Shown in pieces: positions 5,311-48,906 of a stretch of DNA of 64,000 nt. The DNA is from an uncultured virus (IMG/VR IMGVR_UViG_3300028388_003769). Lineage: Duplodnaviria; Heunggongvirae; Uroviricota; Caudoviricetes. The DNA lies in the IMG/VR virus record IMGVR_UViG_3300028388_003769. One strand, 5' to 3'. Position 1 is the first letter of the stretch, and each line of letters begins with the position of its first letter. A model generated the notes under the pieces. That model had not been told where the DNA came from. It made no database searches and saw only the letters and a program-made list of their open reading frames with translations. A program made the position numbers and the translations under genes.

Positions 5311-5517
5311 CTAGTTAATCAACCCCTCATCGTCGTGTCTATATAGATCATAGCCGATCCGTCCAACGTAGAACAGCATAAGCAGCACAAGTGCAAGCAC
5401 AACCAACTTAGCAAACAGCACTTCTGGTCCTGACAGCAACATAAACAGTCCAATAAACACCATATTAATGAGAGCTGAGAGTAGTGCTAGAGCTAAAGTT
5501 ACTGATTTTGTATACAT
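5311..5517 (-). CDS. small membrane protein (2 TM)
   Basis: two hydrophobic segments in 68 aa. Confidence 0.7.
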   Translation of the reverse strand: MYTKSVTLALALLSALINMVFIGLFMLLSGPEVLFAKLVVLALVLLMLFYVGRIGYDLYRHDDEGLIN

Positions 5518-14263: not shown

Positions 14264-15706
14264 TTAAGACTTTTTTAACTGTTTAATGTTTCCAGCCATA
14301 ATACTTCCATACGGATATATTCGGTTGGTAATTACAGTTTCATCTCCAAAGTATCTTTCTATTTGATCTACTATTTGATGAGCATTTTTGTATGCAGATG
14401 GAAGTTCTGAAATGTCAGGTTCGCCAAAGAATCTAATATCGTATCCATCAGTCTCCTTCTGTAGCAACTGTTCAGCTGTTTTATGTTGATTGTTCTTTTT
14501 GTGCTGAGTTCTGCTTATAAGCCTTCCTGCACCGTGAGGTGCAAATCCAACAGATTGTGATAGTGAACTACGATTCACCGGTTCAACTACTAATATTGGT
14601 TGAGTCATGTTTAAAGGAATTAATCTTTTACTACTATATACTAAATCATTAAGATCCGATATTAGATCATATGACATAGGAGTAGCTCCTTTTGCATGAT
14701 AGAAGTGTGTTAAGTTACTTTTATCTCTATATACAAAGTTATGAGTGTTCCAAATAGTGTTGTAAATAGTGCTGAGTTCATCATCGGTATTCATAACAGC
14801 ACGTAGTATAGCGTTGTGTATTGATTTATGATTTAGATATGTCCAATCCTTAACGATCTGTAAAGCATCCCAGTACTGCTTACCCTCTTGTGTATCGAAT
14901 GGAATCCAACCGTTGTGTTTTGGAGTATTAGGCGATAGCTTTTTTCTAAACCTTTCAGCAACTGCCCTACCTTTCTTATACAGTGCTGCACCTACTCCTC
15001 TACTTCCATGATGTGTAACTATCCACACCTCTCCTTGTTCATCATAACCTACAAATAGAAAATGATTTCCATCACCTTGAGTAGACATGTGTGACTTAGC
15101 CATTTGTATTATATGTTGATCGTTTAAGTATAGATTTTCTTCCATCATCAATTGTAGAGTTAATGGTAAATCTATTAGCGGAGTGTTGCGACCCCCTTTA
15201 CCGAAATGTGTTATGTTAAAGGCTGCATTTAATACTTGCTTGCACACATCATCGATATCATCACCAAATCTAAAATCTTTTGGTAACTTAGTTGCATAGA
15301 CCGAACAGCATATATCAGCACTATGCATGGATGGGTGTATAGCACTATCAGCAACGACCACTCCACCAACAGGAATGGTTCCTACTGGTCCTGCAGGACA
15401 AGCATCTGGCATAATAGCTCCTTCTATAACTGTAGGTGTTTTCATAACCTCCTCCATAGTTTTTAACACCTGTTCGTAATTTGCCTTTTCGTCTTCTGAT
15501 ACAGGATCGTCTAAATAAATACCATATGGTGCTGGAGTTGTGTGAGGTTGGATTTGTACTATAGGTTTAGGTTTGACAGAGTCTAAGTAGTTAATAAGCT
15601 CTTTACCGCTTAGGCTGTGCTCGTTGCATTGCTTCAATGCTGCACCGAACCACTTTCCTGGTTCATATCCTAAATCTATTAATGTGTGTCCTGTTATTTT
15701 TGTCAT
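14264..15706 (-). CDS. rtcB: RtcB-family RNA 3'-phosphate/5'-OH ligase
   Basis: MPDAC..IPVGGV, SADICC, GDGNHF, HHGSRG, HNF, HAKGAT, PHGAGR, ELPSAYK motifs. Confidence 0.95.
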   Translation of the reverse strand: MTKITGHTLIDLGYEPGKWFGAALKQCNEHSLSGKELINYLDSVKPKPIVQIQPHTTPAPYGIYLDDPVSEDEKANYEQVLKTMEEVMKTPTVIEGAIMPDACPAGPVGTIPVGGVVVADSAIHPSMHSADICCSVYATKLPKDFRFGDDIDDVCKQVLNAAFNITHFGKGGRNTPLIDLPLTLQLMMEENLYLNDQHIIQMAKSHMSTQGDGNHFLFVGYDEQGEVWIVTHHGSRGVGAALYKKGRAVAERFRKKLSPNTPKHNGWIPFDTQEGKQYWDALQIVKDWTYLNHKSIHNAILRAVMNTDDELSTIYNTIWNTHNFVYRDKSNLTHFYHAKGATPMSYDLISDLNDLVYSSKRLIPLNMTQPILVVEPVNRSSLSQSVGFAPHGAGRLISRTQHKKNNQHKTAEQLLQKETDGYDIRFFGEPDISELPSAYKNAHQIVDQIERYFGDETVITNRIYPYGSIMAGNIKQLKKS

Positions 15707-16577: not shown

Positions 16578-16601
16578 AAGCTTTTATTTTGTAATGTGTA
16601 G

Positions 16602-16812
16602 CTGTCAGGGTAGGATTCGAACCTACAAGGTGAGGTTAGTGAGAAAACAACTGTACGTACTAGTGGTCAACCCTTGATATATTTTCTCATTTATCCCTAA
16701 TGGCTTTTCTAGGTATCACCTTGTTTGACTCCCTAGATTTAACGGACATACCCGACCACCTATCACCACCCCCGAGACAAGAGGGCATGGCTACCTATTT
16801 CATCACCTGACA
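16602..16812 (-). tRNA. tRNA-Asp(GTC)-like RNA with a 142-nt structured variable region
   Basis: acceptor TGTCAGG/CCTGACA + G73; D-arm ATG/CAT; anticodon arm CCCTC-TTGTCTC-GGGGG; T-arm GTAGG-TTCGAAT-CCTAC. Confidence 0.75.
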
Positions 16813-16853
16813 ATAATTTAACATTTTAATTTTTAAATATAACTTTTATAGAA

Positions 16854-17809: not shown

Positions 17810-17816
17810 AAGTTTG

Positions 17817-17885
17817 TGGGATAGGAAGGATTTGAACCTTCGAGCTGAGGTTTTACAGACCTGGCTTCTACCCTGGATCTATCTC
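17817..17885 (-). tRNA. atypical tRNA-Tyr(GTA): reduced D-arm, short variable loop
   Basis: AGGT-CTGTAAA-ACCT; T-arm GAAGG-TTCAAAT-CCTTC; acceptor GAGATAG/CTATCCC with one mismatch. Confidence 0.6.
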
Positions 17886-17899
17886 TCAGAAGATTTTTG

Positions 17900-19300: not shown

Positions 19301-19333
19301 AACATTAGGTTGTTTGTATTGTATTTTAATATG

Positions 19334-19408
19334 TGGAAGTAGTCGGAATCGAACCGACCGCATAGTGGTTGCAAGCCACAATCGCCTTGCCTTGGAACAT
19401 GTACCCCC
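19334..19408 (-). tRNA. tRNA-Ala(TGC)
   Basis: GGGGGTA/TACTTCC with G3:U70, A73; GTGG-CTTGCAA-CCAC; irregular D-arm. Confidence 0.82.
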
Positions 19409-19418
19409 AATAAAGCTG

Positions 19419-19499
19419 AAGACCAGGTGGGATTCGAACCCACATTTTCAGATCCACTTACACAATACTTGCTTAGAAGGCAAGGGTGTCTACTGGTCT
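19419..19499 (-). tRNA. tRNA-Arg(TCT)-like RNA lacking a D-arm
   Basis: AGACCAG/CTGGTCT; 8-nt linker; CTTGC-CTTCTAA-GCAAG; 24-nt variable region; GTGGG-TTCGAAT-CCCAC. Confidence 0.6.
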
Positions 19500-19524
19500 A
19501 AAAAGAGGTGTTGACGTACACCTC
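19500..19524 (-). terminator. hairpin + T-run at end of tmRNA coding piece
   Basis: GAGGTGT-ACGTCA-ACACCTC-TTTTT. Confidence 0.6.
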
Positions 19525-19725
19525 AAAAAACGCCGACTACGCAGCAGCTGCTGCTACGTTGTCGTTTAATGTAATAACGTTTGCAGTTATTAAAAGTCTC
19601 GTAGCTCTAACACTCACAATTCATCACTACTTGTCGATGCCATGTCACCCCCATATTTTTAAAATAGTTTTGTGGAGGTGCAGAGATTCGAACTCTGGTC
19701 CAATGTAATTTCACTGTAAGTACTT
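19505..19725 (-). ncRNA. ssrA: circularly permuted (two-piece) tmRNA; outer ends approximate
   Basis: acceptor piece GGAC-CAGAG-TTCGAAT-CTCTG-CACCTCC-A (ends 19673) precedes coding piece GGGGGTGACATGGCATCGAC (starts 19652); G3:U70; ATAACT-GCA resume context; tag ANVITLNDNVAAAAA* at 19584-19537. Confidence 0.9.
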
Positions 19726-19750
19726 TATATACAAACTACAATTCTTTTTG

Positions 19751-19821
19751 TAGACCTAAAGGGAATCGAACCCCTATCTCCAGGTTCGTAGCCTGGTGTC
19801 TTTCCGTTAAACGATAGGTCT
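19751..19821 (-). tRNA. tRNA-Arg(ACG)
   Basis: AGACCTA/TAGGTCT, CCAGG-CTACGAA-CCTGG. Confidence 0.9.
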
Positions 19822-21716: not shown

Positions 21717-22166
21717 TTACTTATCATACAATACTAAAGTAAGATCTACATCTTCTAGCTCTTCTTCGATAATAGCACAAATAGTATTCCAATCTCCTCC
21801 AGCCAATCCTGCACCAATCATAGGAATGCCTATTGTTTTATCTGAGAACTGTTCTGCGATTCTCTTAAAGCACTCTTTTACACTATCGTAATCTACATCT
21901 ACTTTGTTTCTACTGTAGCCGTATTGAGTGTAGGCATTGACGCAGATAAATCCTTCTTTTTCAGGTCCTCCCCACGAAAGCTTTCCTAGTTTTGACTTAT
22001 CTCCAGGAATTGTATTTCTGTCTGCTAGATAGGCATTTGGACATTGCTCACGTACTTGGCGAGCAATTCCTGCACCCATCTGACAAAAACAGTTACATCC
22101 ATGTACAATTACATCAAACATTCCTTGTTTAGCTAACTGTATTAGATCTCCTTTTATTGTTTTCAT
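21717..22166 (-). CDS. macro domain protein (ADP-ribose binding/hydrolase, Poa1p-like)
   Basis: KGDLI, IVHGCNCF..MGAGIA, NAYTQ, PMIGAGLAGGDW. Confidence 0.92.
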   Translation of the reverse strand: MKTIKGDLIQLAKQGMFDVIVHGCNCFCQMGAGIARQVREQCPNAYLADRNTIPGDKSKLGKLSWGGPEKEGFICVNAYTQYGYSRNKVDVDYDSVKECFKRIAEQFSDKTIGIPMIGAGLAGGDWNTICAIIEEELEDVDLTLVLYDK

Positions 22167-33513: not shown

Positions 33514-34344
33514 TTAATATTTAATTCCTTTTACGGTGTGCCCTTTAGGACCATGTAGATTGTTTTTGTATAATCTAGGCTCCATACCCCACTTATACTT
33601 AAATGTTTCTCTAGCAGCTATTTCAGATTGAGTAAACATTAGGCTCTCTTTACCTTTTTTTGTAGCTGTAGAACCAAAATGATAAAAACTTAAACTATGT
33701 GTTCTTACTAAGTCTGAATCACTAAGTTGTAGTTTGAGAAAGAAATCCCAATCGCATATGAAAGGAGAAGGATACAGTGTGTCGAATCCTCCCACTCTCA
33801 TGTAGTCCTTCTTACGTATAAGAAATGGAAATATACCACCATCAGGTGTAGTTATGTTCGGCTTTGCCAATTCTCGTTCGTACTTGAGAAACTCTTCGTA
33901 CTTAAACTCATTAGCACTAGTGCCGAAATCTTTAATATGGAATCCAAAAATACTTGGACCTTTTGGTTCTATTTGGTTAATAGTTACAACAGTTGTTGAT
34001 TTATTATTGGAAGATACTATAGGATTCCTATAGTCTAGCAATCTAGTGTCCCAATCTTCACATAGAACGTTATCGTCATTTATTATTAATAGTAGAGAGT
34101 TTGAAGCATTAAATGCTCCTACATTTAAAGCATGCTGCATGCCTTGGTTCTCCTCGAGATCAACAATGTGAACATACGAAAATTGTTTATATTTTTCTAA
34201 CACACTCTCACTCTCTTCGTAAAATCCATCAACAACTACAAGAATCTCGTTTTTAAAGACTTGGTTTTGTATTGCTGATTTTAAACATAAATCAAGGTAC
34301 TCGGGGTTTCTATAGGTTGGTATTATTAGACTTAATTCATTCAT
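33514..34344 (-). CDS. GT2 glycosyltransferase (start at MNELS)
   Basis: SLIIPTY, VVVDG, INDDN, GGFD. Confidence 0.9.
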   Translation of the reverse strand: MNELSLIIPTYRNPEYLDLCLKSAIQNQVFKNEILVVVDGFYEESESVLEKYKQFSYVHIVDLEENQGMQHALNVGAFNASNSLLLIINDDNVLCEDWDTRLLDYRNPIVSSNNKSTTVVTINQIEPKGPSIFGFHIKDFGTSANEFKYEEFLKYERELAKPNITTPDGGIFPFLIRKKDYMRVGGFDTLYPSPFICDWDFFLKLQLSDSDLVRTHSLSFYHFGSTATKKGKESLMFTQSEIAARETFKYKWGMEPRLYKNNLHGPKGHTVKGIKY

Positions 34345-34363
34345 AACTTCAATATACGTAATT

Positions 34364-35368
34364 TTATTTAAGTTTCCAAAAATTATAAATACCTTTTTCA
34401 ACTTCGTATTTGTCCCAAACAAAACGTTTTCGATTAGGCTGTTGTTTAGCCCAATTCCACATTTTAGTTAAACCCTCATGAAGATTTGTTTTATGTTCGT
34501 ACTTTAGTAAGTGTATGGATTTATGATATGTTGGAACAGCAACTTTTACTTCATGTCTTTTTTGTAACTTAATAAATTCACCATCCCCAATAACTTCCTC
34601 TCTCAAAATTTTGTTAGCTTCATTAATTGTAACTTCTTTTGTTCCTCCTAAATTTATAATCTCTTTAGAGGCTTGGGGCTGTGTGGCTGCTGCCCACATA
34701 GGTTCTAGTGTGTCGTCAATAAAGGAGAACGACCGTACCTGTTCACCATCTCCAAAAATAGTCATAGGTTGATCATTTAAATACTGATACATCCAAATGC
34801 CAAGAACGTTACGATATTTATCCCAAATATTTTGGTTTACTCCATACACATTGTGTGGTCTAATTATACACCAATCTAACCCAAATTGTTCACCTGCAAC
34901 TTGTATATCCATTTCACAAGCATACTTTGCTATTCCATATGGATCAATTGGCTGAGGATTGTCGTTCTCACTAAATGGTGGTACTCCATTACCATAAACA
35001 GCCATTGATGATGTAAATACCAATCTCTGTATATTATAAGTGATGCAGTTGTTAACTATGTGTGTTGTGGCAACTAGGTTATTTTGGTAATTAAAAGACC
35101 TTATAAACGGAGACAACCCTTCTGCTGCATAAGCTGCAAAGTGATATACATACTGTATGTTATTACGTTTGAAAATGTTTTCTAAACGATCTGGTGCTGA
35201 CACTAGATTTAGTATGTAAAAATCAACATCTTTAGGAACATTTTCTCTATATCCTCCTGATAAATCATCTATACCAATTACTCCGTAATCTGTATTGTCT
35301 AGTATCCATTGAGCCATCCGACTTCCTAAAAGTCCTGCTACTCCTGTTATTAGTACTTTTTGTTTCAT
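34364..35368 (-). CDS. NAD-dependent sugar epimerase/dehydratase
   Basis: TGVAGLLG, TSSMAVYG, YGIAK. Confidence 0.93.
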   Translation of the reverse strand: MKQKVLITGVAGLLGSRMAQWILDNTDYGVIGIDDLSGGYRENVPKDVDFYILNLVSAPDRLENIFKRNNIQYVYHFAAYAAEGLSPFIRSFNYQNNLVATTHIVNNCITYNIQRLVFTSSMAVYGNGVPPFSENDNPQPIDPYGIAKYACEMDIQVAGEQFGLDWCIIRPHNVYGVNQNIWDKYRNVLGIWMYQYLNDQPMTIFGDGEQVRSFSFIDDTLEPMWAAATQPQASKEIINLGGTKEVTINEANKILREEVIGDGEFIKLQKRHEVKVAVPTYHKSIHLLKYEHKTNLHEGLTKMWNWAKQQPNRKRFVWDKYEVEKGIYNFWKLK

Positions 35369-35381
35369 TGCTTATATAAAG

Positions 35382-36095
35382 TTAAACGCTTTTACTATTG
35401 TTTATAACTACTTCCCAATCTACAGCGGGACTTAAATATGGAGTTTCTACGTGAGTAGAGTATCCAGGAATAGATGAAACCAGATTACTGCCTTCCCGCC
35501 ACAGTCTGATAAACTTATCGTGATCTCTTGTAAATCCACGCTGTAAGTCACAGTACTCTTTATGTATGTGTATGTGTTTTTTAAATGTTTTAAATTTACA
35601 CGCATAGGTGTTTGTAGTAGATGGTGTAGTTCTCCAATGTACATTTTCAGTTGCCAATATTTTACTCTGTAAGTTCTCATAAGCTGGAAGAAAGTACTTG
35701 TCTTTGTGGTCATAAAGTGTGAGATAATCAACTCCCATAGAATCAAAACCTTCTAACATTATATCTACCCAACCATCAACATGTATGTAATCGTCTTCAA
35801 GAAAATATATTATATCATTGTTGTCTATATCCAACTTTTCTACATACTCAACTACGTTTAAAAAACTATGTCCGTCAGTTCCACCATTCCGTTTGACAAT
35901 ATTAACATCATAATTATTAATGAAGTGTTCTTCATTTGGTTCACCATCAAACATAACAGTTAAATCTACATCGTCTCTTCCATTAACAGTTCTCACTAAA
36001 TTCTTAAAACAGCCTTCTCTATCATACCATTCAGGTCTGACCTTACCAACTGAATTAGATGAAAAGTTACAATGTCTTTGAAATATTCTAATCAT
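35382..36095 (-). CDS. GT-A-fold glycosyltransferase-like protein
   Basis: YFLEDDYIH (DxD-like). Confidence 0.65.
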   Translation of the reverse strand: MIRIFQRHCNFSSNSVGKVRPEWYDREGCFKNLVRTVNGRDDVDLTVMFDGEPNEEHFINNYDVNIVKRNGGTDGHSFLNVVEYVEKLDIDNNDIIYFLEDDYIHVDGWVDIMLEGFDSMGVDYLTLYDHKDKYFLPAYENLQSKILATENVHWRTTPSTTNTYACKFKTFKKHIHIHKEYCDLQRGFTRDHDKFIRLWREGSNLVSSIPGYSTHVETPYLSPAVDWEVVINNSKSV

Positions 36096-36700
36096 AATAC
36101 ATCTGTTAAATTTTTTGGTCTTTCTACTAACATGTCATGAGCCTTTCCTACTGTGGGAATATGTTGTTCCCATATATTAAGTTGAATATTATTTTCCTGT
36201 AAATAATTGAATACAGTTTCACGAAGTAATTTTTGTTCTTCAGTTACAGGTTCATGCCATTCTCCCCACAATTCATCAACATAATCTATAGTACCGTCTT
36301 CAATCATTTTGTTCAATACATGATATTCGGCACCTTCAATATCAAACTTGACTACTAATTTAAAATTCCTTTCTTCAAATTGTTTTAAAAAAGTTGAAAA
36401 ATCTACAGTACTTACTTCAATATCAACTTCTTCATCTTGCCAAGACTTTCCATGTTCCTCTATTAACGAAGAACCGTCGGTAATACGTGTAGATATTTGA
36501 AAAGTAGATATACCATCTTCTATCCATACTGCACCATTTACAATATCCACGGTTTCATCACCTTCCCATATTTTTTCTAACGAATCTGCGAAATATGGTA
36601 TTGGTTCAAATCCAACTATCCTCGTATTATTACCAAATTGATGCTTTGCTCTTAAAATTGATTCACCACAATGGGAACCACAATCTATAAATACTGTCAT
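36092..36700 (-). CDS. FkbM-family methyltransferase
   Basis: FIDCGSHCG, FEP, KFDIEGAEY. Confidence 0.9.
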   Translation of the reverse strand: MTVFIDCGSHCGESILRAKHQFGNNTRIVGFEPIPYFADSLEKIWEGDETVDIVNGAVWIEDGISTFQISTRITDGSSLIEEHGKSWQDEEVDIEVSTVDFSTFLKQFEERNFKLVVKFDIEGAEYHVLNKMIEDGTIDYVDELWGEWHEPVTEEQKLLRETVFNYLQENNIQLNIWEQHIPTVGKAHDMLVERPKNLTDVL

Positions 36701-37473
36701 AATAATTTACTCAATGCATTTTTCATTTTACTTTCTTCTGCTCTTTGTTTCGCTCTTCTACTAATTGTACCATCGTCATTAACGTAACCATCGTCTCCAT
36801 TAATATAAACATTAGGTAAATGGTGAATTAGATTCTTATCAAATTCTGATATACAAATTACTTTATATAATCCTGACCACTTATATATTTCAGTATTCAC
36901 CTTACACTTAAAACTATATTGGTCATTTGACCAAAAATTATCTAAGTCAAACTGTGAAGATATTTTATTTATTTTGGAATCTGATAAAAGAAAGGATGCT
37001 TGATGTACATTATTAAAGTGAGCAAATTTAAGACCACCAAATTCTTCAACTGAATTATAATCCCAATCATAATGAGCGTGATAAGCAGGATAATATCTAC
37101 CCGTTTCATCGTACTCATATTGAATTAACCCACTTACATATCCTTCAGGTAGAATCTCTTCATACCTCTTATAATTATCTATATGATGTTCTTCCCATAA
37201 ATGGTCATTCTCTGTATAAATATAATAGTCAAATTGACCAATATAGTTATTGATTACTCGTCTTGCCATCAATGGAAGTAATTGCCAACTCGGTAATTCA
37301 TCTACAAGTACTACATGGTCTATTCCCTCAATCATAGGGTCTAATGAAATATTTGTTGTGACAAATATGGTAGTATCATACTTATCAAACGAATTAATTG
37401 AATGAATTACTTCTTGTAAATATTCAAGTTGCTCGTCACCGTAATTTACTATAGATACTAAAATACTATCCAT
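36697..37473 (-). CDS. glycosyltransferase-like protein
   Basis: YYIYTENDH motif; cluster context. Confidence 0.6.
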   Translation of the reverse strand: MDSILVSIVNYGDEQLEYLQEVIHSINSFDKYDTTIFVTTNISLDPMIEGIDHVVLVDELPSWQLLPLMARRVINNYIGQFDYYIYTENDHLWEEHHIDNYKRYEEILPEGYVSGLIQYEYDETGRYYPAYHAHYDWDYNSVEEFGGLKFAHFNNVHQASFLLSDSKINKISSQFDLDNFWSNDQYSFKCKVNTEIYKWSGLYKVICISEFDKNLIHHLPNVYINGDDGYVNDDGTISRRAKQRAEESKMKNALSKLL

Positions 37474-38192
37474 TACTTTACAGTCTTCCAATTTTTTGAT
37501 TTTAGTTCTTTTACAATAGAATCTCGTAAAGGTGAATGATTAACTTTCTTATGTGAAGCATTTTCATCATTACCATACACATCTCCTTTGTCAAATTTAG
37601 AGCCCCAATAAGAAAGATTATTTAACGGATGTGGTGGCACATACGTCTTTATCCCACCATATTTTTGAGCAAAATAAGATAATTGTATATCTTCTCCATT
37701 TTCCCAACTGACTGGTTCTTCATACCACATGTACCGTAAATAATCCTTTTTCACAAACCACGCGTGTCCTACTAAATCAACCTCTATCACATCATTTGAC
37801 CGTATACCATTCCATCCAACTTTCGTATGCGGATTATAAGTATCTCCATGTAAGATAACACCCGCTGTACCTAATATTCCATCATACCCATTCTCTATAG
37901 TATGCAAACAATTCTCAAACCAATTTTCAGATGGAATTGTGTCATCGTCAAAGAATGCCACATATTCAGTTTTAGCAAGAAGTGCGAAAGCAAATCTACC
38001 GTGAAACTTGAAGTTATGGTTACAAGTTGCTACTTTACAGCCTAAATCAGTAATATCATACTGCTCACCATCTTCAGGTTTATTATACCATATAAAAATA
38101 TCTTCAGGTACTATAGACTGATTTCGTATTGCTTCAATCTGTTCCTGAAGATATTGTGGTCTCTTGTACATATTTAATATAACTGTTATCAT
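37473..38192 (-). CDS. GT-A glycosyltransferase
   Basis: ITVIL..YKR, FFDDD, GEDI. Confidence 0.8.
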   Translation of the reverse strand: MITVILNMYKRPQYLQEQIEAIRNQSIVPEDIFIWYNKPEDGEQYDITDLGCKVATCNHNFKFHGRFAFALLAKTEYVAFFDDDTIPSENWFENCLHTIENGYDGILGTAGVILHGDTYNPHTKVGWNGIRSNDVIEVDLVGHAWFVKKDYLRYMWYEEPVSWENGEDIQLSYFAQKYGGIKTYVPPHPLNNLSYWGSKFDKGDVYGNDENASHKKVNHSPLRDSIVKELKSKNWKTVK

Positions 38193-39169
38193 AATATGAT
38201 TTTTAATCTCTCTGACGCTTTACCGTCTCCGTAAGGACACTCCGTTGTAATATAAGGATTTTTTATAAGAATGTCAAATAAATCCTTGATTTCATTAGGA
38301 CTTTGACATAAGTGCAGGTGCCCCGTATCAATTCCTTCAGGTCTTTCTGTAGTCTTTCTGCATACAATTACCTTCTTGTTAAAGAATGAACCCTCTTCCT
38401 GAATACCACCACTGTCTGTAATGACTAACTTACATTGTTTTAGAAGTGAAATTAAATCTCTATGCTCTAATGGATTAATAACTTTAACATTAGTTAACAA
38501 TCTCTCGTGCTTTAATACATTTGGATTTGGGTGAATCGGAAGAATAAATTCTAAGTTATCATACTCTTTAGCTAACTCATTAATTTTCTCAAACCATTTG
38601 TCCATCCAATGATGATTTTCGCGTCTATGAAGGGTTATAAGAACTACATCATCGTATGTACCTTCTCCATATTCTACAAGGTTGTCAAGTACTGTGTTGC
38701 CCACAACGTGAATTTCACCTTGTATATTTTCTTTGAGAAGATTTTTCTTTGACAATTCGGTTGGACAGAAATTTACGTCAGCTATTCTTGCTATCATCTG
38801 TCTGTATCCCTCTTCGGGATATGGATGTTTCAAGTTATTACTTCGTAGTCCTGACTCTAAATAATATATCTTTAACTCTCGGTTAAAAGCGGCGAGAGCA
38901 CATCCAAATACTGAACCTGTATCTCCCTGTACTAATATAGAATCAATCTCTTCGTCCGCTGGAAACTGAATCATACATTCAGAAATAATGGTGTCCAATC
39001 TATTGGTTGAAGAGTCAGGTAATTGTATTCTATAATCAACTTCTATATCACTCAGTAAATCAGGATGCTGACCTGTAAATAGTAGTTTGTACTTCTTTTT
39101 ATCCAAGACTTTAATAACTGGCTTTATCTTTAACCATTCAGGTCTTGTTCCAAAACATATTAATATCAT
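38189..39169 (-). CDS. wecB: UDP-N-acetylglucosamine 2-epimerase (non-hydrolysing)
   Basis: GTRPE..K, TGQH, QGDT, PEE..R, HRREN, TDSGGIQEE, YGDG. Confidence 0.95.
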   Translation of the reverse strand: MILICFGTRPEWLKIKPVIKVLDKKKYKLLFTGQHPDLLSDIEVDYRIQLPDSSTNRLDTIISECMIQFPADEEIDSILVQGDTGSVFGCALAAFNRELKIYYLESGLRSNNLKHPYPEEGYRQMIARIADVNFCPTELSKKNLLKENIQGEIHVVGNTVLDNLVEYGEGTYDDVVLITLHRRENHHWMDKWFEKINELAKEYDNLEFILPIHPNPNVLKHERLLTNVKVINPLEHRDLISLLKQCKLVITDSGGIQEEGSFFNKKVIVCRKTTERPEGIDTGHLHLCQSPNEIKDLFDILIKNPYITTECPYGDGKASERLKIIL

Positions 39170-39610
39170 TTATTTATATTTTTTTATATTATCACTACAA
39201 ACTCCAATACAATTACTCACATCAGAATTAAATACTTCAGGCATTACACCTATAGAGTTTTTTGGATATTTCTCAGTTGGATATGCCCATATGAATCCAT
39301 GTGAAGTTAAAGTAACCGTATCTTCTTCGTGCCAAAAATAATTTAACTTTTTATTGTCCAATCCATTAAAATATATAATAGAAGATAAGTCTTTACAGTG
39401 AATCCATAATCTACCACATCTTGCTATAAACCATTCTAAAGATATCGGGTACATTGGTTCGTCATGTCCTAAGTAAAGTACACTATTTTCAAACCAAACA
39501 TCTACCTCTACATCATATCCACTATCCAGTGCTATCTGAATGTAATGTGGATGATTTTCTTTTTCAGTCTCTCTTCCACTAATGTTTCCTCTATGAGATA
39601 TTTTTATCAT
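39170..39610 (-). CDS. short glycerophosphodiester phosphodiesterase-like protein
   Basis: ISHRGN, EN, DVEVDVW, GHD, GVCSD. Confidence 0.75.
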   Translation of the reverse strand: MIKISHRGNISGRETEKENHPHYIQIALDSGYDVEVDVWFENSVLYLGHDEPMYPISLEWFIARCGRLWIHCKDLSSIIYFNGLDNKKLNYFWHEEDTVTLTSHGFIWAYPTEKYPKNSIGVMPEVFNSDVSNCIGVCSDNIKKYK

Positions 39611-40967
39611 AATGATCCAAATAGTAATTCAAGTCTTCAGGTGTTCCAAGTCCCCACATTTTTTTTACATCAAATGTACGAATTTCTTTATCATCGTCTA
39701 TTGCTTGATTAAACACAGGACACACATAAAATTCACCATTAACTCTTATATCCTTTTCAATCATTTCTTCTGCGTACTTAACAAAATCAGAACCATGCTT
39801 CCAATAATAATACCCCACTGTTGCCGTATCAGATATAGGATTTTTCTCTGCTACTTCTACTACTAACCCTATATCATTTACTTTAACAAATGACCACTTA
39901 GGATGTGTTGCTTTAAATGATACAATACCACCATCAGCATCAGTTTCATTCATTTTATACATAAATTCATTTGAATCCCACTCAACAAATTGGTCAGAAT
40001 TAGCAAAGAAAAGTGGATTATCATTATCAATATATTCTTTTGCCAATAATGCTGTACAGGCTGCTCCTTCTGTAATACCATCTACCTCAACAATCTTACA
40101 ATTAGGTGTAATCAAATTCAATAAAGTATCTAAGTTATACTCTTCTCTATGTGATTTTTGTACTACATAGATAAAGTTCCCTTCTATATTTAGATTTTCT
40201 ACAACAGTCTGAATCATAGGCTTTCCATTAACATCGATTAACGGTTTAGGGAACGTATACCCTGCCTTTTTAAATCTACTCCCTGCTCCAGCCATTGGAA
40301 TTAATACATTTAGTTTTTCGTCTGTCCATTTTGGTTTAGTCATATTTTTACCAGTCTCTATTTGTTTTAATTTACGATAAATATTTTCACAAGTTACCTC
40401 TTCTACATTTTTCACTCGGAGTATGTGAGAATGTGTTCTACTTGCTGCCAACAATCCATACGGAGAATCTTCCACAATTAGTGTTTCTTCAGGTAAGTAT
40501 CCCATTTTAGATATAACTCTCCAATACATTTCAGGATGTGGTTTAGAATTTTGAACATCCTCATTAGATAGTACATAATCCATATACTCCATGACCCCAA
40601 GTTTTGATAGAACTGTAAGTACTGTCTTTCTTATCGAGTTAGAACTTACTGCAATCTTATATCCATCAGAAACTAAAGACTCCATAACACCTTGTAGTAT
40701 TGGGTCTGGAGTTGTATCCTTTAATAACTTTAAAGTCCACTTTTGCTTGTCTCTCCATATTTCATCATGTAATTCACTCGGAAGTCCTTTTCGTTTAGTA
40801 AGCATCTCCAACTTTTGTACTGTCTTTAATCCATCATATATGGACAAGTGCTCATTCCACTTTATAGTATATTCTTTTGGCAGAGCTTTATTTAAAGCAT
40901 CATAATGAATTTGTTTAGCTTCTATCAATACACCGTCTAAATCGAAAATAATTAATTTTACTTTCAT
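39591..40967 (-). CDS. HAD phosphatase + sugar nucleotidyltransferase fusion
   Basis: FDLDGVL, KPHPE, EDS..G; then IPMAGAGSRF...PKP, LGTPEDL. Confidence 0.92.
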   Translation of the reverse strand: MKVKLIIFDLDGVLIEAKQIHYDALNKALPKEYTIKWNEHLSIYDGLKTVQKLEMLTKRKGLPSELHDEIWRDKQKWTLKLLKDTTPDPILQGVMESLVSDGYKIAVSSNSIRKTVLTVLSKLGVMEYMDYVLSNEDVQNSKPHPEMYWRVISKMGYLPEETLIVEDSPYGLLAASRTHSHILRVKNVEEVTCENIYRKLKQIETGKNMTKPKWTDEKLNVLIPMAGAGSRFKKAGYTFPKPLIDVNGKPMIQTVVENLNIEGNFIYVVQKSHREEYNLDTLLNLITPNCKIVEVDGITEGAACTALLAKEYIDNDNPLFFANSDQFVEWDSNEFMYKMNETDADGGIVSFKATHPKWSFVKVNDIGLVVEVAEKNPISDTATVGYYYWKHGSDFVKYAEEMIEKDIRVNGEFYVCPVFNQAIDDDKEIRTFDVKKMWGLGTPEDLNYYLDHYDKNIS

Positions 40968-41668
40968 ATAATTCCTCTTTTAGATGAATCCACATTATAT
41001 TTGTCAAAAATATTATTCAACTCCAAACTATATTCTTTAAGATTCCACCGTCCCTTGTTTATAGCAGTTGCTATATATGGAAACACAATACTATTATAGT
41101 GATAATTTCCTCTCTTTTCCTCAGAACCAAGACGTACCATATAATCGTTTCTAAGTGGTACTGCTACTTCAAATTCCCATATATTTTTATTACCGATATC
41201 TTCTAATAATGATAATAACGTACTTGGTTTAATCAAAGTAGGTTGTACTGAAAATTTTGAGTATCTATTACGTACTAAAGTACTGTTCAAGTCAAACAAA
41301 GTATCAGTTCCCTCAACGTATATCAATTTAATAGAATCTACATATCCGGCTTCTACATATGAAATATACTTATTTATCATGTCAATTTTTGGATAGTCAT
41401 ATAACATCATATCTTCATGTAAAAATAATATAACCTCATCAGTTATTTTAGATATAGTTGATATGAGACGCTCTACATATGAATCATCATTATTGTATAT
41501 TAGATATTTTATATTAAATGAGTCATGTAACGATTTGTCATAATCTTTATCACATATCAGATAAATATTTCCATTAAAATCTGGCATATATTTTTTTAAT
41601 TCCTCAAAAAATATAGTAGATACGTCACTATAATCGGAGTGTGTATATAACACTAACGCTGCTCTCAT
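40964..41668 (-). CDS. glycosyltransferase-like protein
   Basis: FLHEDM, WEFE; cluster context. Confidence 0.6.
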   Translation of the reverse strand: MRAALVLYTHSDYSDVSTIFFEELKKYMPDFNGNIYLICDKDYDKSLHDSFNIKYLIYNNDDSYVERLISTISKITDEVILFLHEDMMLYDYPKIDMINKYISYVEAGYVDSIKLIYVEGTDTLFDLNSTLVRNRYSKFSVQPTLIKPSTLLSLLEDIGNKNIWEFEVAVPLRNDYMVRLGSEEKRGNYHYNSIVFPYIATAINKGRWNLKEYSLELNNIFDKYNVDSSKRGII

Positions 41669-42390
41669 TCCCATACCGTTTTTAAATTTACTCTATTATT
41701 CCACAATCCATTATTAATCATCCACCACTTGTAAAAGGCAATAGCGTTTGATAAATCACCATCACTACCTTCAATATTTCTTGCGAACTCATGAAAGTCA
41801 CCATCAATAATCATATTGTCTTTGAGAGATTCGTATAATGTACAGAAGTTTTTCATAATTTCAGGTGAACCATAAAACCACATATCAGCAGGCCCCATTT
41901 TGAAATGATTCCAATTAGCCATATAAATTTTATCATTTTCTATGTCAGTCTTGAAATTAATACACTGTACAGGATATGGATTGTTTTTTCCAGGGCCCGA
42001 AGTGTTCCTGTTTATTCTACCTAAATCAAATCTAGCTTTAACAACTATATCGTAATTTTCATTATATTCAAATACCCTCTTAATAGATTGACTGACACTA
42101 TATAGATGAGATAAAACTGATTGTGGCGGTCTTGGACATCCCTTTAGGGTATTTAAATTCCTATCTTCAACTATAGAAGAAAAATCTTTCTGTTCTTGAA
42201 ATAAATAAGATACAGGATTATATAAATCACAAATTTCTTTTTCCTTATCTAATTCCCAACTATGAATAAACACATCAGTATCTACAACATCTAATATATT
42301 GTTTTTTATATGTTTATATCCATCATATCCTTTAGACGTTTTATCAGTTGCTGAATCAAAAAGTCCATGTAAACATAAAGCTACTTTCAT
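41665..42390 (-). CDS. glycan-related hypothetical protein
   Basis: KVALCL.G, DVFIHSW, YDIVVKARFD. Confidence 0.65.
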   Translation of the reverse strand: MKVALCLHGLFDSATDKTSKGYDGYKHIKNNILDVVDTDVFIHSWELDKEKEICDLYNPVSYLFQEQKDFSSIVEDRNLNTLKGCPRPPQSVLSHLYSVSQSIKRVFEYNENYDIVVKARFDLGRINRNTSGPGKNNPYPVQCINFKTDIENDKIYMANWNHFKMGPADMWFYGSPEIMKNFCTLYESLKDNMIIDGDFHEFARNIEGSDGDLSNAIAFYKWWMINNGLWNNRVNLKTVWE

Positions 42391-42872
42391 ATTCTATAAG
42401 GTGTGCGTATAAGTGTTTTTCCGCCATCATTACTTGTTCGTTTCATTGGCTGTTTCCAGTTTTCTCTATACTCACAATTAAAACGTTTAGATATTAATTC
42501 CAATAATTCACTATAGTTTTTTACAGCCCATTCATGTTTTATTAGTAAGTATTCAGAGTTATCCCAATTTTCACGGATTGGAGTATTGTAATAGTAATTA
42601 TACACCTCTCGTGTAAAGTTACATTTTGGATAAGCTCTTGATATAGAATGATTCCATATATCATAATCTCTCTGAATTATCAGAGGGCTTCCATTGTTTA
42701 AGTTTGGATAGCAGTGTTTCAGTGACTGTGCTTCACCAAATCGTTGATCTCCCTCTACATTACCAATAACAGATATACTACTGTCATATTTCACACTAAA
42801 GTTGTGAATTAAAGTCCATTCTATAAAGTTTGTTCCGCTTTTCTGTAATCCGTATACTTGAATTTTGTTCAT
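42387..42872 (-). CDS. sulfotransferase-like protein (short)
   Basis: G.QKSGTNF PAPS-loop-like motif. Confidence 0.55.
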   Translation of the reverse strand: MNKIQVYGLQKSGTNFIEWTLIHNFSVKYDSSISVIGNVEGDQRFGEAQSLKHCYPNLNNGSPLIIQRDYDIWNHSISRAYPKCNFTREVYNYYYNTPIRENWDNSEYLLIKHEWAVKNYSELLELISKRFNCEYRENWKQPMKRTSNDGGKTLIRTPYRI

Positions 42873-43354
42873 GACAGCTTTTTTATTTTCTTTATTATCT
42901 CAGGATAGTCTTTTAATATATCAGGATTATCTTTTAAGGTTTGAATTGCTATATCATTTTTCAACTTAGTTGTACTCCATCCATGAGCCCTTGAAGTATA
43001 TACAATATTAGGTGGTAAATCATCCCCTGTAACTCGTTTACCAATATAATCTTCACCTAATATTCTAATATCAGGTTTGAAGAATTTAATCAAATCGTAT
43101 AACTCATCTTCAGTCTGATATGTGTAAACGGCATCTACAGATTCCATTTCCATTAAAGTATTATACCTCTCTGCTCTCGGAACAACTGGCTTATACTTAT
43201 TCTCTCTATCTACAGAAGGGTCATTCTGTAAAAATACCATAAAATAATCACAGTGTTTTTTAGCAGACTGAAATGTATAAACATATCCGGGATGAATAAT
43301 ATCAAAATTTCCAGCTGTAAACCCTACGATTTTTTTATTATTGTCTACTATCAT
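42869..43354 (-). CDS. cytidylyltransferase (TagD-like)
   Basis: AGNFDIIHPGY (HxGH variant), R....STT. Confidence 0.88.
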   Translation of the reverse strand: MIVDNNKKIVGFTAGNFDIIHPGYVYTFQSAKKHCDYFMVFLQNDPSVDRENKYKPVVPRAERYNTLMEMESVDAVYTYQTEDELYDLIKFFKPDIRILGEDYIGKRVTGDDLPPNIVYTSRAHGWSTTKLKNDIAIQTLKDNPDILKDYPEIIKKIKKLS

Positions 43355-43436
43355 CTTAACTATAATCTAATTCATAATTTTGTTCTTCAAAAAAGTACGT
43401 ATATTAACCCCATTCCACCAATTGTTATACTTTGCA

Positions 43437-44063
43437 TTACTCTATTGTTCTATTGTTTTTAAATAGTGTAAATTCAGTTAAATCTCTATACCCATTATCT
43501 TCAGGTAAATCACTCATATGTTTAGGATATTGCTGAAAAAGTGATAATCCATGAGCTGCTTGCTGTGGTGTCATATACATATTCCACCCACAAAAAGTTA
43601 TATCGTCATCTTTGTAAAACTTCTCACTTCGTCCTTCGTATCTTGCTTTCTTAAACCACTCGGCTGCTTCCTTGTCATCAGTCAGTATCATTCCACCTTT
43701 CCAAATAGGAAGTAGTTTCTTTATGTGAAATGATAAACACATATATTGTCCATCTTTATACATCCCACTTGTCAATCTTTTAGCCGCATCCCATATCGGA
43801 TATGGTTTTAACTGATAAACTCCCTTCCAATGATTAACTTCTGGACGTTTATCAAATATAACTTCCCCACCCGCGTGCATAATCGACTGTGGTACTGAAA
43901 GGTATGTATGAGCAGGTATTGTAACCTCTTTAACTTCTAAGTATTTACAAACTAAAAACAAGGCGTTCGTACAACTATCTACGGATATTGCGTATGGAGC
44001 ACCTGTATAGTTAGCAATTTCATCTTCAAACATTTTTACTATTTCATATGGCTTGTGTATCAT
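43437..44063 (-). CDS. DegT/DnrJ/EryC1/StrS aminotransferase, compact (start at MIHKP)
   Basis: FE.EIA.Y.GA.YA..V.SCT.AL, DAA, SFH..K....KGGM. Confidence 0.88.
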   Translation of the reverse strand: MIHKPYEIVKMFEDEIANYTGAPYAISVDSCTNALFLVCKYLEVKEVTIPAHTYLSVPQSIMHAGGEVIFDKRPEVNHWKGVYQLKPYPIWDAAKRLTSGMYKDGQYMCLSFHIKKLLPIWKGGMILTDDKEAAEWFKKARYEGRSEKFYKDDDITFCGWNMYMTPQQAAHGLSLFQQYPKHMSDLPEDNGYRDLTEFTLFKNNRTIE

Positions 44064-44460
44064 CTTGTTTCTTATAGTATGTAAACTGTTCATCTTTATC
44101 GGAAATAGAAAATCCAAGAGATAAAAATAAATTATCACTTGCTGTGTTTCCTAATTTGACTTTTGCGTAAGCGGTTGGAAATATATCCATGATTTTTGAA
44201 ATCATAAATTTACCAACTCCCCCTTTTTGATGATCAGGGTGCGTACAAACTCTTATATCATCGTCTATTACACCTACATATCCCACAGGATTATCATCAA
44301 TAAGTGCAACTCTATAAAAGTCTGAATATTTTTTCATATATGCTTGTTGCATATCTTCTGTAATATACGTGTTCTCATTGAAGCCATGAGAAACTTCTTT
44401 ATCATTTCGAAGATTTCTAATAAACTCCCAATATCTTTCTTTACACTCTACTAATTCCAT
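44044..44460 (-). CDS. GNAT N-acetyltransferase
   Basis: IR.LRND, HPDHQKGGVG, N.AS..LF..LGF. Confidence 0.85.
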   Translation of the reverse strand: MELVECKERYWEFIRNLRNDKEVSHGFNENTYITEDMQQAYMKKYSDFYRVALIDDNPVGYVGVIDDDIRVCTHPDHQKGGVGKFMISKIMDIFPTAYAKVKLGNTASDNLFLSLGFSISDKDEQFTYYKKQDDTQAI

Positions 44461-45230
44461 ACACAAATCTTATTTAAATTTCCACCACTTCCTGCTCCGT
44501 AGTATGCGTTAATATATCCACGGGAAACGGGCATACCCATCTCTCTTGAAAGGGTAGTCCCAATATCAATATACGTATTTTTTGGGTACTTATCAAATAA
44601 TCTATAAATCGCTAAGTTTGAAAAAGATGATGCTGAAAAAAGAAATATATGGTCTTCAATATTATTTTCACCAATCCAATCTAATATATTATCTATCTTA
44701 TCGTAATCATTAACCATAGCATTGTATCCTATTCTAAAGTCTTTTACGATATATGGAAACTTATCCAACTTAGCAGTTTCATGTCCAATAAATACACATT
44801 TATTTTTACTAAATATTGGTACAACTTCTTTCATGAATAGTGGATAATTTCCATTAACCCATAAATTAGCCCATGTCAGAGAGTCATCATCACCATCATG
44901 TAAATCAATTTGCCAATCAAAGTTATCCTTTCCAACACAGCAACTACAACTTACACCTTTATAGTAACCATCTTTCTTAAACTGAAATGATTCTATCAAC
45001 CTCTTTCTAACAATTTGATGTTTATTTGGATTAAAGTTTTTAAAATCTAATGGACGATAATGTGCCCGATTAACTTTATTACCAACTTTGGCTATTCCTT
45101 GATCTAATACCAATTCTTTATTTTGTAGAATAAACATTTCACCATCGGAATATCTGGCAAAGGCAAAGCGTTCTCCATCTACAATCTTTTGCTTAAATTT
45201 AAAAAAGTGTTCTCTAAAATCCTTTTCCAT
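44451..45230 (-). CDS. GT-D/DUF1792-like glycosyltransferase
   Basis: FARYSDGE, YIDIG. Confidence 0.65.
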   Translation of the reverse strand: MEKDFREHFFKFKQKIVDGERFAFARYSDGEMFILQNKELVLDQGIAKVGNKVNRAHYRPLDFKNFNPNKHQIVRKRLIESFQFKKDGYYKGVSCSCCVGKDNFDWQIDLHDGDDDSLTWANLWVNGNYPLFMKEVVPIFSKNKCVFIGHETAKLDKFPYIVKDFRIGYNAMVNDYDKIDNILDWIGENNIEDHIFLFSASSFSNLAIYRLFDKYPKNTYIDIGTTLSREMGMPVSRGYINAYYGAGSGGNLNKICVWN

Positions 45231-45232
45231 TT

Positions 45233-46189
45233 TTAAGTCCATCTTAATAATAACTTATCGACTGCTGCTGGGGAGTATAGGTCTGTCTGGTCAACTGCTG
45301 CTGGGGAGTATAGGTCTGTCTGGTCAACTACTGCTCTTCCTTTAAGCTTTTCCCAATCACGCTCGGGTCGAACGTGTAAATTAGTTTTCCAACCTCCTCG
45401 AATAGTATTAATTGGTACTCCAAGTTTATCAGCTAAATTAATTAAAGCACTAACATCCTTTGGAAAGCAAGTTCCACCATATCCTAATTTTCCATCAGGA
45501 CCAGGTACATGCAAATGAGAATCTCCAACTCTTCCATCGGATACAAATCCATGAAGTGCTGTACGCCAGTCAACTCCTAATTTATCACCCAACATTTTAA
45601 ATTCATTCATAATGGAAACCTTTGTAGCAAAAAAAGCGTTGTTCATATATTTTATAAATTCTGCTGTGGTTGAGTCTGTGTGAATGTAGTGTCTGTTCAT
45701 AAATCGTTGTTCAAACAACTTTTTAGCTTGTTCACACTCTTCCTCCTCTCCTCCAAAAATAATCCGTGCTTGTGTCAGTGCGTCTAATTTAGCAGTTCTT
45801 TCTGTTAAAAATTCTGGAGAAAATATTATTCTTAATTTGGAATATATCTTTCGTAGCTTTTCTGTAGTGCCTGGAAGTACAGTTGATTTAATTATAAATA
45901 AAGGTTTTTCTTTTTTGCTTTTTAAAAAACAAGCATCGTTAGCTCGACTTAACACATTAGATACGTATTGTAGATTTTGTGTTCCATCTTGATTCATTGG
46001 CGTTGGTACGCATATGAATACAAAATCACACTCAGTAACCTGTTCAAAAGTGTGTGTTGATTTTAAAGGATCAATGTCAAACACTCGCACTTCACAAGTT
46101 GGTGAAAAAGCAAACACTATGCTCTCTCCTACAAATCCATTTCCTATGACTCCTACTTTATCTACATGTAAGTGTTTTGTAATATTCAT
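45233..46189 (-). CDS. UDP-glucose/GDP-mannose dehydrogenase family, lacking C-terminal domain
   Basis: GNGFVG, CVPTP, KSTV.PGT, PEFL, GYGGTCFPKD. Confidence 0.92.
   Translation of the reverse strand: MNITKHLHVDKVGVIGNGFVGESIVFAFSPTCEVRVFDIDPLKSTHTFEQVTECDFVFICVPTPMNQDGTQNLQYVSNVLSRANDACFLKSKKEKPLFIIKSTVLPGTTEKLRKIYSKLRIIFSPEFLTERTAKLDALTQARIIFGGEEEECEQAKKLFEQRFMNRHYIHTDSTTAEFIKYMNNAFFATKVSIMNEFKMLGDKLGVDWRTALHGFVSDGRVGDSHLHVPGPDGKLGYGGTCFPKDVSALINLADKLGVPINTIRGGWKTNLHVRPERDWEKLKGRAVVDQTDLYSPAAVDQTDLYSPAAVDKLLLRWT
45261..45326. repeat. perfect 33-bp in-frame tandem duplication
   Basis: actgctgctggggagtataggtctgtctggtca x2 (VDQTDLYSPAA x2). Confidence 0.95.
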
Positions 46190-46952
46190 TTTGTTGTTGT
46201 TGTCTTTTTATGCTTTTATAGTGTAATAAACAGTATGGAAATTTTTTTGGAAGTTTTGCTATTCCTGTTTTTACGGTTTGATGAATTTGTTCATGAACCT
46301 TACCTTCCCAAAAAACTTGTGGCTTGTTTCTATACAACCTCGATTGATAGTCGGGGAAGTTTATAGCAGGTAAATCGTATTTAATAGTGTCTGTATCTTC
46401 GTACGAAGATATTACTTCTAAAATAAAATTAGCATCAGAAAGAAACCGTAATGCAGGGCTATCCTGTTTAAAGCTTCCCACCTGTCTATATACCATTCGT
46501 GTACCGTCTGTATCAGGCAGTCTCATAACATTCCATCTCCATTTTTTAATATCATCCCAAGTCATTCCATATACTAAATTTATTCTAGGAATATGAACTA
46601 CATCTATATTATCAGGTATTGATTGTGTAAGAATTTCAGGAAGCTGCTCTATAAACTCAGTCTCTAACTGCTCGTCCGCATCTAACTGAAATATCCAAGG
46701 TTGTGCACAAAATTCATGACCTGAGTTTTTAAATTGTGCGAAATCATCATTAAGTTTGCTTTCTACAACTTTGTATGCACCTGAAAAATTAGCTTCCATT
46801 TGTTCAACCACTTTCATAACTTGTGAAGTTGTATTTGGTTGATCTAGTAAAACTACAACCTCATCACCACTACCTACGTTAGTAGATAGAGTACTTAACA
46901 ATCCTCTTAACTCATTGTGTTCGTTGTGTGCTGTAATTAGATAGCTAATCAT
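46158..46952 (-). CDS. GT2 glycosyltransferase
   Basis: ISYLITAHNE, WIFQLDADE, PDYQ.R, WEGKVHE. Confidence 0.9.
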   Translation of the reverse strand: MISYLITAHNEHNELRGLLSTLSTNVGSGDEVVVLLDQPNTTSQVMKVVEQMEANFSGAYKVVESKLNDDFAQFKNSGHEFCAQPWIFQLDADEQLETEFIEQLPEILTQSIPDNIDVVHIPRINLVYGMTWDDIKKWRWNVMRLPDTDGTRMVYRQVGSFKQDSPALRFLSDANFILEVISSYEDTDTIKYDLPAINFPDYQSRLYRNKPQVFWEGKVHEQIHQTVKTGIAKLPKKFPYCLLHYKSIKRQQQQNEYYKTLTCR

Positions 46953-48885: not shown

Positions 48886-48906
48886 ATTATTTTATATGTT
48901 TTTGCT

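Follow-up and report, generated by a model that had tools for sequence, protein, structure and literature searches.

A tRNA-Asp-like RNA with an enlarged variable domain in Bacteroidota and phages: a possible carrier for asparagine synthesis

Introduction

In the indirect pathway to asparagine, an AspRS of the non-discriminating kind (ND-AspRS), tRNA-Asn and the amidotransferase GatCAB act together (PMC1635274, PMC4206432). The identity determinants of tRNA-Asp are G73, G34, U35, C36 and C38; its G1-C72 pair is strictly conserved in bacteria and helps E. coli AspRS, U1-A72 is a determinant of amidation, and the identity elements for Ser likewise include a large variable region, G73 and G2:C71 (PMC9976931). 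A tRNA-Asp that has U1-A72 and lacks U20A is almost as good a substrate for amidation as tRNA-Asn, the anticodon being irrelevant (PMC1635274), and an extra U20A or U20B is a GatCAB antideterminant (PMC1635274, PMC2811023).

The window analysed here, a 64,000-nt stretch of DNA from an uncultured virus, encodes one member of a family of putative carrier RNAs that shares with the indirect pathway U1:A72 and G73, the presence of GatCAB and the absence of AsnA and AsnB; the chemistry that I propose for it is identical. The family differs from that pathway in its Asp anticodon and C38, so that a discriminating AspRS would suffice to charge it, in a product that, as proposed, could not safely decode and would have to be released, and in a class II core with a variable domain of 21-142 nt. 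With canonical bacterial tRNA-Asp (RF00005) it shares the cloverleaf core, GUC, C38, G73 and G2:C71, but it has U1:A72 in place of G1:C72, a class II D arm, a large variable domain and a pyrimidine at position 37, and its full-size members have no RF00005 match.

Other unusual tRNA-like RNAs are known from bacteria and phages. Among the allo-tRNAs and selC* tRNAs GUC is a frequent anticodon and regulatory roles have been suggested, but their acceptor/T stems are 8/4 or 9/3 (PMC5389517), whereas every aligned member of the present family is 7/5 with a fixed anticodon. The bacterial Y RNA YrlA is likewise a tRNA-like non-coding RNA of bacteria and phages that is longer than a tRNA (PMC4201824); its acceptor-like stem is closed by a loop and it is found beside Ro60, whereas the family ends in a true acceptor stem, has an anticodon arm, lacks a loop-closed stem with a Ro60-binding stem and matches nothing in Rfam. 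Stable RNAs of 120-140 nt also occur in the tRNA cluster of phage T4 (species 1 and 2, rnaC and rnaD), and I rejected kinship with them, since the family model R1 matches only two ordinary tRNAs in the T4 locus. Identity with tmRNA was rejected because the window RNA has U3:A70 rather than G3:U70 and a full anticodon arm, and because a permuted tmRNA is encoded elsewhere by the phage. The retroviral dimer initiation site is a kissing-loop dimer with a self-complementary hexamer in its loop. Self-complementary loop hexamers such as GCGCGC and GUGCAC recur in the phage members of the family, where they sit on a tRNA scaffold, are enriched in phage copies only and would support a putative dimer. 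The family thus falls outside tRNA-Asp, intron-containing tRNAs, allo-tRNAs, YrlA and tmRNA.

Results and discussion

The window gene lies on the minus strand from 16812 (U1) to 16602 (G73), 211 nt in all. It is matched from end to end by model R1, which derives from 54 other sequences, with 85.7 bits (E 1e-20), against 57.1 bits for the best ordinary tRNA in the same search; a homolog-based model, which the initial annotation had proposed as a check, supports the whole RNA. Its 7-bp acceptor stem pairs 16806-16812 (U1:A72, G2:C71, U3:A70) with a 3' strand that includes the discriminator G73 (16602-16609); C74 is encoded at 16601, and the CCA end is unencoded. The D arm (16787-16803) is of the class II, Leu-like kind, with a 3-bp stem, A14, A15, G18, G19 and an extra base, which I take to be A20a by tRNA-Leu numbering; pair 10:25 covaries, and an invariant A15 goes with U48 in 54/54 aligned sequences. 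The anticodon arm (16769-16785) has a 5-bp stem and the loop UU-GUC-UC, with GUC at 16778-16776, U37 and C38, and the T arm (16610-16626) is canonical. The remaining 142 nt (16768-16627) form the variable region. The initial annotation had read these arms, G73 and the length of the variable region correctly, as well as the U37 that the RNA has in common with the ordinary tRNA-Asp at 17972-17900. That tRNA-Asp (minus strand) has G1:C72, U37 and A38, without the C38 determinant. The window RNA carries the GUC, C38 and G73 of a canonical tRNA-Asp and lacks its G1:C72, short variable loop and RF00005 match.

Standard tools pass the element by. ARAGORN does not call it at default settings and, with introns allowed, yields nothing but a false tRNA-Glu prediction that covers a portion of it, and the comparison with Rfam that had also been proposed left it unmatched in both gathering and E-value modes, as it did eight homologous loci. 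Folding of the single sequence is no better than that of shuffles (z 0.17 for the whole RNA, -0.21 for the variable region), so the case for more than a chance structure rests on homologs.

These homologs define the variable domain. It begins with stem V1a (5' strand 16764-16767, partner 16632-16629; two-sided changes in 3/4 pairs), followed by a variable bulge and helix V1b, whose 5' strand AGG (partner 16635-16633; two-sided changes in 3/3 pairs) forms one segment, 16690-16698, with a conserved GAUAAA strand. The latter faces CUAA (16639-16636) in a conserved internal loop, the letters of which are kept even in copies that were found without those letters in the query. Helix V2 (5' strand 16680-16689, partner 16649-16640) has two-sided changes in 5/9 pairs and 97% of its cells paired, and leads to a distal loop. 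The loop holds GGGUUGACCAC (16663-16673), a motif that family comparison shows to be conserved and to be missing from short members, its invariance in alignment A1 being partly circular because the motif was in the search pattern, and the self-complementary 8-mer GUACGUAC (16653-16660), a candidate kissing or dimer site. In the 54-sequence alignment, 97.8% of variable-domain cells are paired and two-sided changes occur in 165 cells, compared with 41.8 in shuffles, figures that are inflated by related sequences and refer to a structure derived from the same alignment. Slid registers of that alignment give at most 53% paired and at most 26 two-sided cells, and despite the relatedness several types of base pair occur in each of the helices V1a, V1b and V2.

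In the window copy the domain is complete, and its bulge holds in addition a 65-nt insert (16699-16763), which is private to this copy and has a predicted multi-helix fold. I found no homolog of the insert, and in a metagenome scan for copies with long inserts none of 8 loci was real; folded alone it has a z of -1.55, with 35/500 shuffles as good. This bears on the helices drawn in the initial annotation. Its TGAGAAAA/TTTTCTCA is the covarying V2 helix of the family. The closing GGTGA/TCACC does pair, in another register, since the family has GGTG/CACC followed by the 3-bp helix AGG/CCT. The predicted helix TCTAGG/CCTAGA sits within the private insert (16763-16699) and is seen in no homolog, and the suggested long-range pair TGGTC/GACCA is unsupported because GACCA is kept in members without the insert that bears TGGTC. 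The length of the variable region forms a continuum from 21 to 142 nt that is closed by a conserved stem, and by its sequence the region looks like an overgrown class II arm, unlike an intron. A tRNA with a group I or II intron was rejected: there is no Rfam intron match, there are no fixed splice ends, length varies continuously and RtcB is unlinked.

A uniform finder run over all loci recovered at least 160 distinct bacterial and at least 86 distinct phage sequences, the window included, of 90-212 nt, the upper value from a bacterial copy. Judged from these sequences, the window gene is one copy of a widespread and apparently undescribed tRNA-shaped RNA of Bacteroidota and phages; the titles and abstracts listed in literature searches hold no description of such a family, and one could stand in the supplement lists of large RNA surveys, in Table S1 of PMC4206432 or in subscription papers. 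A blastn search against annotated phages gave one real match, a 143-nt copy in the 636-kb phage LR756504.1, and a phage member used in the same way was unmatched. Pattern scans were seeded with motifs common to the window copy and the LR756504.1 copy. An initial 20-nt pattern found only a phage tRNA-Asn, and two further patterns only the 636-kb phage plus chance matches. The first viral scan gave 9 real loci out of 59, judged by eye. The second viral scan found the full element in 98 of the 120 loci listed, which hold 85 distinct sequences, two of them ordinary short tRNAs, and hence at least 83 distinct phage copies. The genome scan gave at least 120 matches; the real copies among 80 titled loci there come from records named Bacteroidota, with Pedobacter, Chitinophaga, Aquirufa, Sporocytophaga, Cyclobacteriaceae, Saprospiraceae and Flavobacteriales MAGs as carriers, and the survey by phylum covered Bacteroidota. 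Matches to Streptomyces phage 'tRNA-OTHER' genes were rejected, their likeness being confined to the T arm.

In short members V2 ends in a hairpin, and these often lie in tandem about 200 nt upstream of a long copy; the shortest phage members (90-107 nt) have a single hairpin and the look of a class II tRNA. In several bacterial loci (L274, L270, L271, L127, L092, L204) two or three copies follow a single promoter in tandem, in many cases a short one ahead of a long one. Phage members such as L025, L046, L369, L370 and L389, among others, carry an additional D-loop hairpin of 10-22 nt, and the short phage members L374, L418 and L487 have A1:U72 in place of U1:A72. Other short members (L208/L309 of G139, and L099) have a UUC (Glu) anticodon while keeping U1:A72 and G73, and are possibly a Glu-to-Gln variant or a sign of a relaxed Asp signal. 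A phage tRNA-Asn(GUU) at L002:2944-3026 combines U1:A72 and a long variable arm with the very D arm of the window RNA, and the 636-kb phage encodes 88-nt tRNA-Asn and tRNA-Thr genes (L001:5250-5337 and 5343-5430); by sequence these appear to be class II-like versions of class I tRNAs.

A perfect palindrome of at least 6 nt occupies the loop after the motif in 58/64 phage copies, compared with 12.0 expected, with 14 different central hexamers, the phage copies being related and so not independent. Bacterial copies show no such enrichment (32/86 against 25.8 expected). Self-complementarity that is conserved while the sequence changes suggests that phage copies form homodimers through the palindromic loop.

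Across the 246 family sequences, G2:C71, C38 and the encoded C74 are invariant (246/246 each), G73 is present in 244, U1:A72 in 243 and the GUC anticodon in 243, the other three having UUC. The first pair was fixed in no search pattern, and GUC with C38 was fixed in two patterns and free in four. All five AspRS identity elements (G34, U35, C36, C38, G73) are kept in the family. U33 occurs in 206/246 and U37 in 229/246, with a pyrimidine at 37 in nearly all. The window RNA and the family thus have the U1:A72 of a GatCAB substrate, and their class II D-loop has A20a where such a substrate has no 20a or 20b base. Asp identity combined with U1:A72 makes this natural RNA resemble the engineered amidation hybrid of tRNA-Asp, except for the extra D-loop base.

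Bacterial copies have a characteristic neighbour. A gene of the AsnC/Lrp family lies just upstream on the opposite strand in 53/73 bacterial loci, and within 1.5 kb in 10/16 and 23/27 RNA-positive genomes of two samples; its best NCBIfam model is AsnC (178 bits, short of the cut-off of 227, against 54 for Lrp). In E. coli, AsnC faces asnA. I found no AsnC-like gene near 63 phage copies, nor in 14/15 RNA-negative, GatB-positive genomes or a separate set of five. It persists without the RNA in the AsnB-positive G021 and G251, and is divergent from asnB in only 1/21 loci inspected. In L513 (G111) a more distant Lrp/AsnC-family regulator faces asnB, an arrangement like that of asnC and asnA in E. 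coli except that the synthetase is the other one. AsnC-like genes dominate the recurrent neighbours of the family, among which no Ro60 was noticed, most other neighbour clusters being unannotated; the surroundings of chromosomal copies are of a housekeeping kind (sufB and others).

What do the genomes that carry the RNA have in common? I compared a phylum sample and a class (Bacteroidia) sample of 151 genomes each, which overlap by about 20 genomes and include many MAGs; GatCAB presence was judged from GatB, and all counts and Fisher p values ignore kinship. The phylum sample has the RNA in 16 genomes, GatB in 126, an AsnRS model match in 83, AsnA in 4 and E. coli-type AsnB in 18. Among its 38 genomes with a long, high-scoring AsnRS, a split chosen after the scores were seen, the RNA occurs in 15/16 GatB-positive and 0/22 GatB-negative genomes, whereas AsnA or AsnB occurs in 0/16 and 17/22, respectively. 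In the class sample the RNA is present in 27 genomes (26 by model R2, one more by pattern), GatB in 112, GlnRS in 58 and AsnB in 19. All RNA-positive genomes have GatB (27/27 and 16/16 in the class and phylum samples), and the RNA is found in 0/39 GatB-negative and 0/19 E. coli-type-AsnB genomes of the class sample. Its distribution there is 15/20 in genomes with GatB and GlnRS, 12/92 in those with GatB and no GlnRS, and 0/39 in those without GatB. The Fisher p values, which leave out the seed genome and the unpublished G228, are 3e-4 for RNA against GatB, 2e-9 within GlnRS-positive genomes and 0.046 for RNA against AsnB. G128 has the RNA and no AsnRS match above the limit.

GatCAB is unneeded for glutamine where GlnRS is present, and 19/20 genomes with both GatB and GlnRS hold either the RNA or a dedicated second AspRS. 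Four of the five that lack the RNA have, beside a normal AspRS, a GatB-AspRS fusion of 1105-1110 aa (L333:2438-5755, L334:2304-5621, L335:2179-5493 and L336:197-3526, in G248, G185, G219 and G275); these four may be close kin. By ORF likeness gatA lies directly upstream of all four, confirmed by model for one. The fused AspRS has an RDHG motif, as in PDB entries named tRNA(Asp/Asn) ligase, and judged by this non-discriminating-type His motif the fusion looks like the core of a transamidosome in one gene. In 35 Bacteroidia the housekeeping AspRS (a filter removed 2 of 40 sequences) has no His (35/35) and, like E. coli AspRS, a second-site Lys in 33/35, in RNA-positive and RNA-negative genomes alike; I take these to be discrimination sites, and they hint at specificity. 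A literature search for a His/Gly signature of AspRS found none. A search of the four fusion genomes and G261 with R1 was empty, with no positive control in that search, and a search of G103, G039, G087 and G107 with R2 was empty while G128 was positive as a control.

The RNA is not required, as it is absent from 85/112 GatB-positive genomes, mostly AsnB-less: of the 80 among these without GlnRS, 78 also lack E. coli-type AsnB, so that most GatB-positive genomes without the RNA must use another source of asparagine. Longer AsnB-like paralogs are present in 4/5 RNA-positive genomes. Host tRNA-Asn keeps U1:A72 in 5/5 RNA-positive genomes, and the standard ND-AspRS route, which has been assumed for such genomes (PMC4206432), could therefore still operate in them.

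Structure, conservation, identity elements, neighbours and co-occurrence are directly supported by these data. My preferred reading of them, to which I would give a probability of roughly 0.55, is that the RNA is a non-decoding carrier that would receive aspartate from the ordinary AspRS and have it amidated by GatCAB, and so be a source of asparagine. I infer the steps from maturation and aspartylation through amidation, exclusion from decoding and release to dimerisation as follows. The tRNA-Asp-derived RNA would mature with a completed CCA end; ordinary AspRS would charge it with aspartate by way of the Asp identity elements; GatCAB, drawn by U1:A72, would convert the aspartate to asparagine; and the charged RNA would be kept from decoding and its asparagine released. 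Cells with AsnRS and GatCAB that lack AsnA, E. coli-type AsnB and ND-AspRS could thereby make asparagine, and large phages may have picked up the RNA to boost the route during infection, possibly as a homodimer. There are points against a carrier: the extra 20a base is of the GatCAB antideterminant type, many phage copies have D-loop inserts, the G1:C72 that helps E. coli AspRS is missing, and AsnB-positive genomes retain AsnC-like genes in the absence of the RNA. At somewhat less than even odds I would go further and regard the family as coenzyme RNAs of a new class, of tRNA origin, which would unite Asp identity with that for the amidotransferase and take the place of asparagine synthetase in many Bacteroidota. 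Their variable domain would block decoding and may itself promote release or transfer of asparagine, and in large phages the dimerising RNA would be an auxiliary metabolic gene that consists of RNA only.

The same identity elements and co-occurrence could also be those of a regulator or scaffold that binds AspRS and/or GatCAB (for sensing Asp or Asn, for sequestering, or as a dimeric transamidosome), with asparagine made on tRNA-Asn, which does keep U1:A72. The conserved internal loop is like a protein-binding site and the phage loops are palindromic; however, the invariant encoded C74 and G73 point to an aminoacylated end, and the mutual exclusion between the RNA and a fused second AspRS is more easily reconciled with a substrate than with a regulator. 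I consider this reading unlikely, if a serious one. A phage counter-defence against anticodon nucleases, with the RNA as a decoy or stable spare for the tRNAs with GUN anticodons that they cut, would suit the many distinct phage copies, often near tRNA genes (40/63 viral loci have an ARAGORN tRNA call, in some cases the short element itself), and the RtcB and other RNA-repair-type genes near the window element. But a decoy has no need of U1:A72, an AsnC-like neighbour or GatB, and it leaves both the chromosomal copies in their housekeeping context and the restriction to GatB-positive genomes unexplained, which makes it improbable in my judgement. I put slightly less weight still on a decoding tRNA that causes regulated mistranslation at Asp codons, by Asn or, through a SerRS that reads G73 and the long arm, by Ser. 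The shortest phage members do resemble class II tRNAs, Ser identity also draws on G73, G2:C71 and a large variable region, and U33 is the majority base; against this stand the nearly universal pyrimidine 37, the non-U at 33 in 40/246, variable domains of up to 142 nt and A72 rather than C72, while the invariance of C38 fits reading by AspRS.

Two further readings concern the window copy in particular, and I regard both as very improbable. In one, the family is real and the 211-nt copy is decaying, disabled by an insert that lacks homologs and folds only slightly better than shuffles; yet it keeps the palindrome, the promoter-like motif and every helix and identity element of the family intact, the insert sits where L113 also has a hairpin, and a bacterial copy is as long as 212 nt. 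The other, which the initial annotation had entertained and which I find the hardest to credit, is a precursor of ordinary tRNA-Asp whose insert is excised and the ends ligated by RtcB. An rtcB-like gene does lie 0.9 kb downstream in the window, but RtcB has no match in any of 63 viral loci (flanks of up to 2.5 kb) and, among all loci compared, has one only in four related Pedobacter loci; moreover, the length continuum offers no fixed splice ends, a D arm of class II cannot do without a long variable stem, and the phage already has a normal tRNA-Asp. The idea of a tRNA-scaffolded non-coding RNA, put forward in the same annotation, is supported by the conserved family, its covarying variable-arm helices and the intact tertiary core; its interpretation had missed the family, U1:A72 and the link to asparagine.

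If the carrier reading is right, the family would add a third route by which asparagine is made on RNA, and it would explain why many Bacteroidota with AsnRS and GlnRS retain GatCAB, an open point in PMC4206432. A tRNA would have been rebuilt as a metabolic carrier through the swap of one base pair and the growth of a domain, and phages would have an RNA-only metabolic gene. Even if the mechanism is wrong, there is a conserved tRNA-like family in several orders of Bacteroidota and many phages that ARAGORN (for full-size forms) and Rfam miss. Pedobacter, Chitinophaga and Aquirufa, as cultured hosts, make it directly testable.

The window copy closes a phage tRNA cluster on its downstream side, and the genes around it all run in the same direction. 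The sequence TTATATTTA (16834-16842, minus strand) ends 21 nt before the RNA and resembles the Bacteroidota -7 element, the consensus of which I take to be TAnnTTTG; it is presumably a promoter. In the window, TTATATTT[AG] occurs 14 times on the minus strand and 4 times on the plus strand, and by eye about 10/14 of the minus-strand sites shortly precede a gene start. TAnnTTTG lies within 150 nt upstream of 45/107 family copies, against 10 expected, while a scan for sigma-70 promoters and terminators gave nothing above chance. From the distribution of the family and this promoter-like motif, the window phage probably has a Bacteroidota host. Among the genes of the window are those for DNA polymerase A, ribonucleotide reductase and RtcB, together with a cluster for sugar modification and a permuted tmRNA, a gene content that points to a large phage.

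Several minus-strand features of the window are worth recording. Genes for an RtcB-like ligase (14264-15706), an RNase H-like protein (PF04308; 18309-18782) and a macro-domain protein (21717-22166) lie amid the tRNA cluster. The permuted, two-piece tmRNA (19333-19763) matches Rfam RF04321 with 78 bits, and ARAGORN gives its tag as ANVITLNDNVAAAAA. Default ARAGORN misses a tRNA-Tyr with a short variable loop (17816-17888) and an Rfam tRNA match with a longer variable region and, by eye, a UCU anticodon (19419-19499). Finally, a cluster of glycosyltransferase and nucleotide-sugar genes of about 16 kb (33517-49821) and a GTP cyclohydrolase I gene (59536-60216) together suggest modification of the DNA or the virion.
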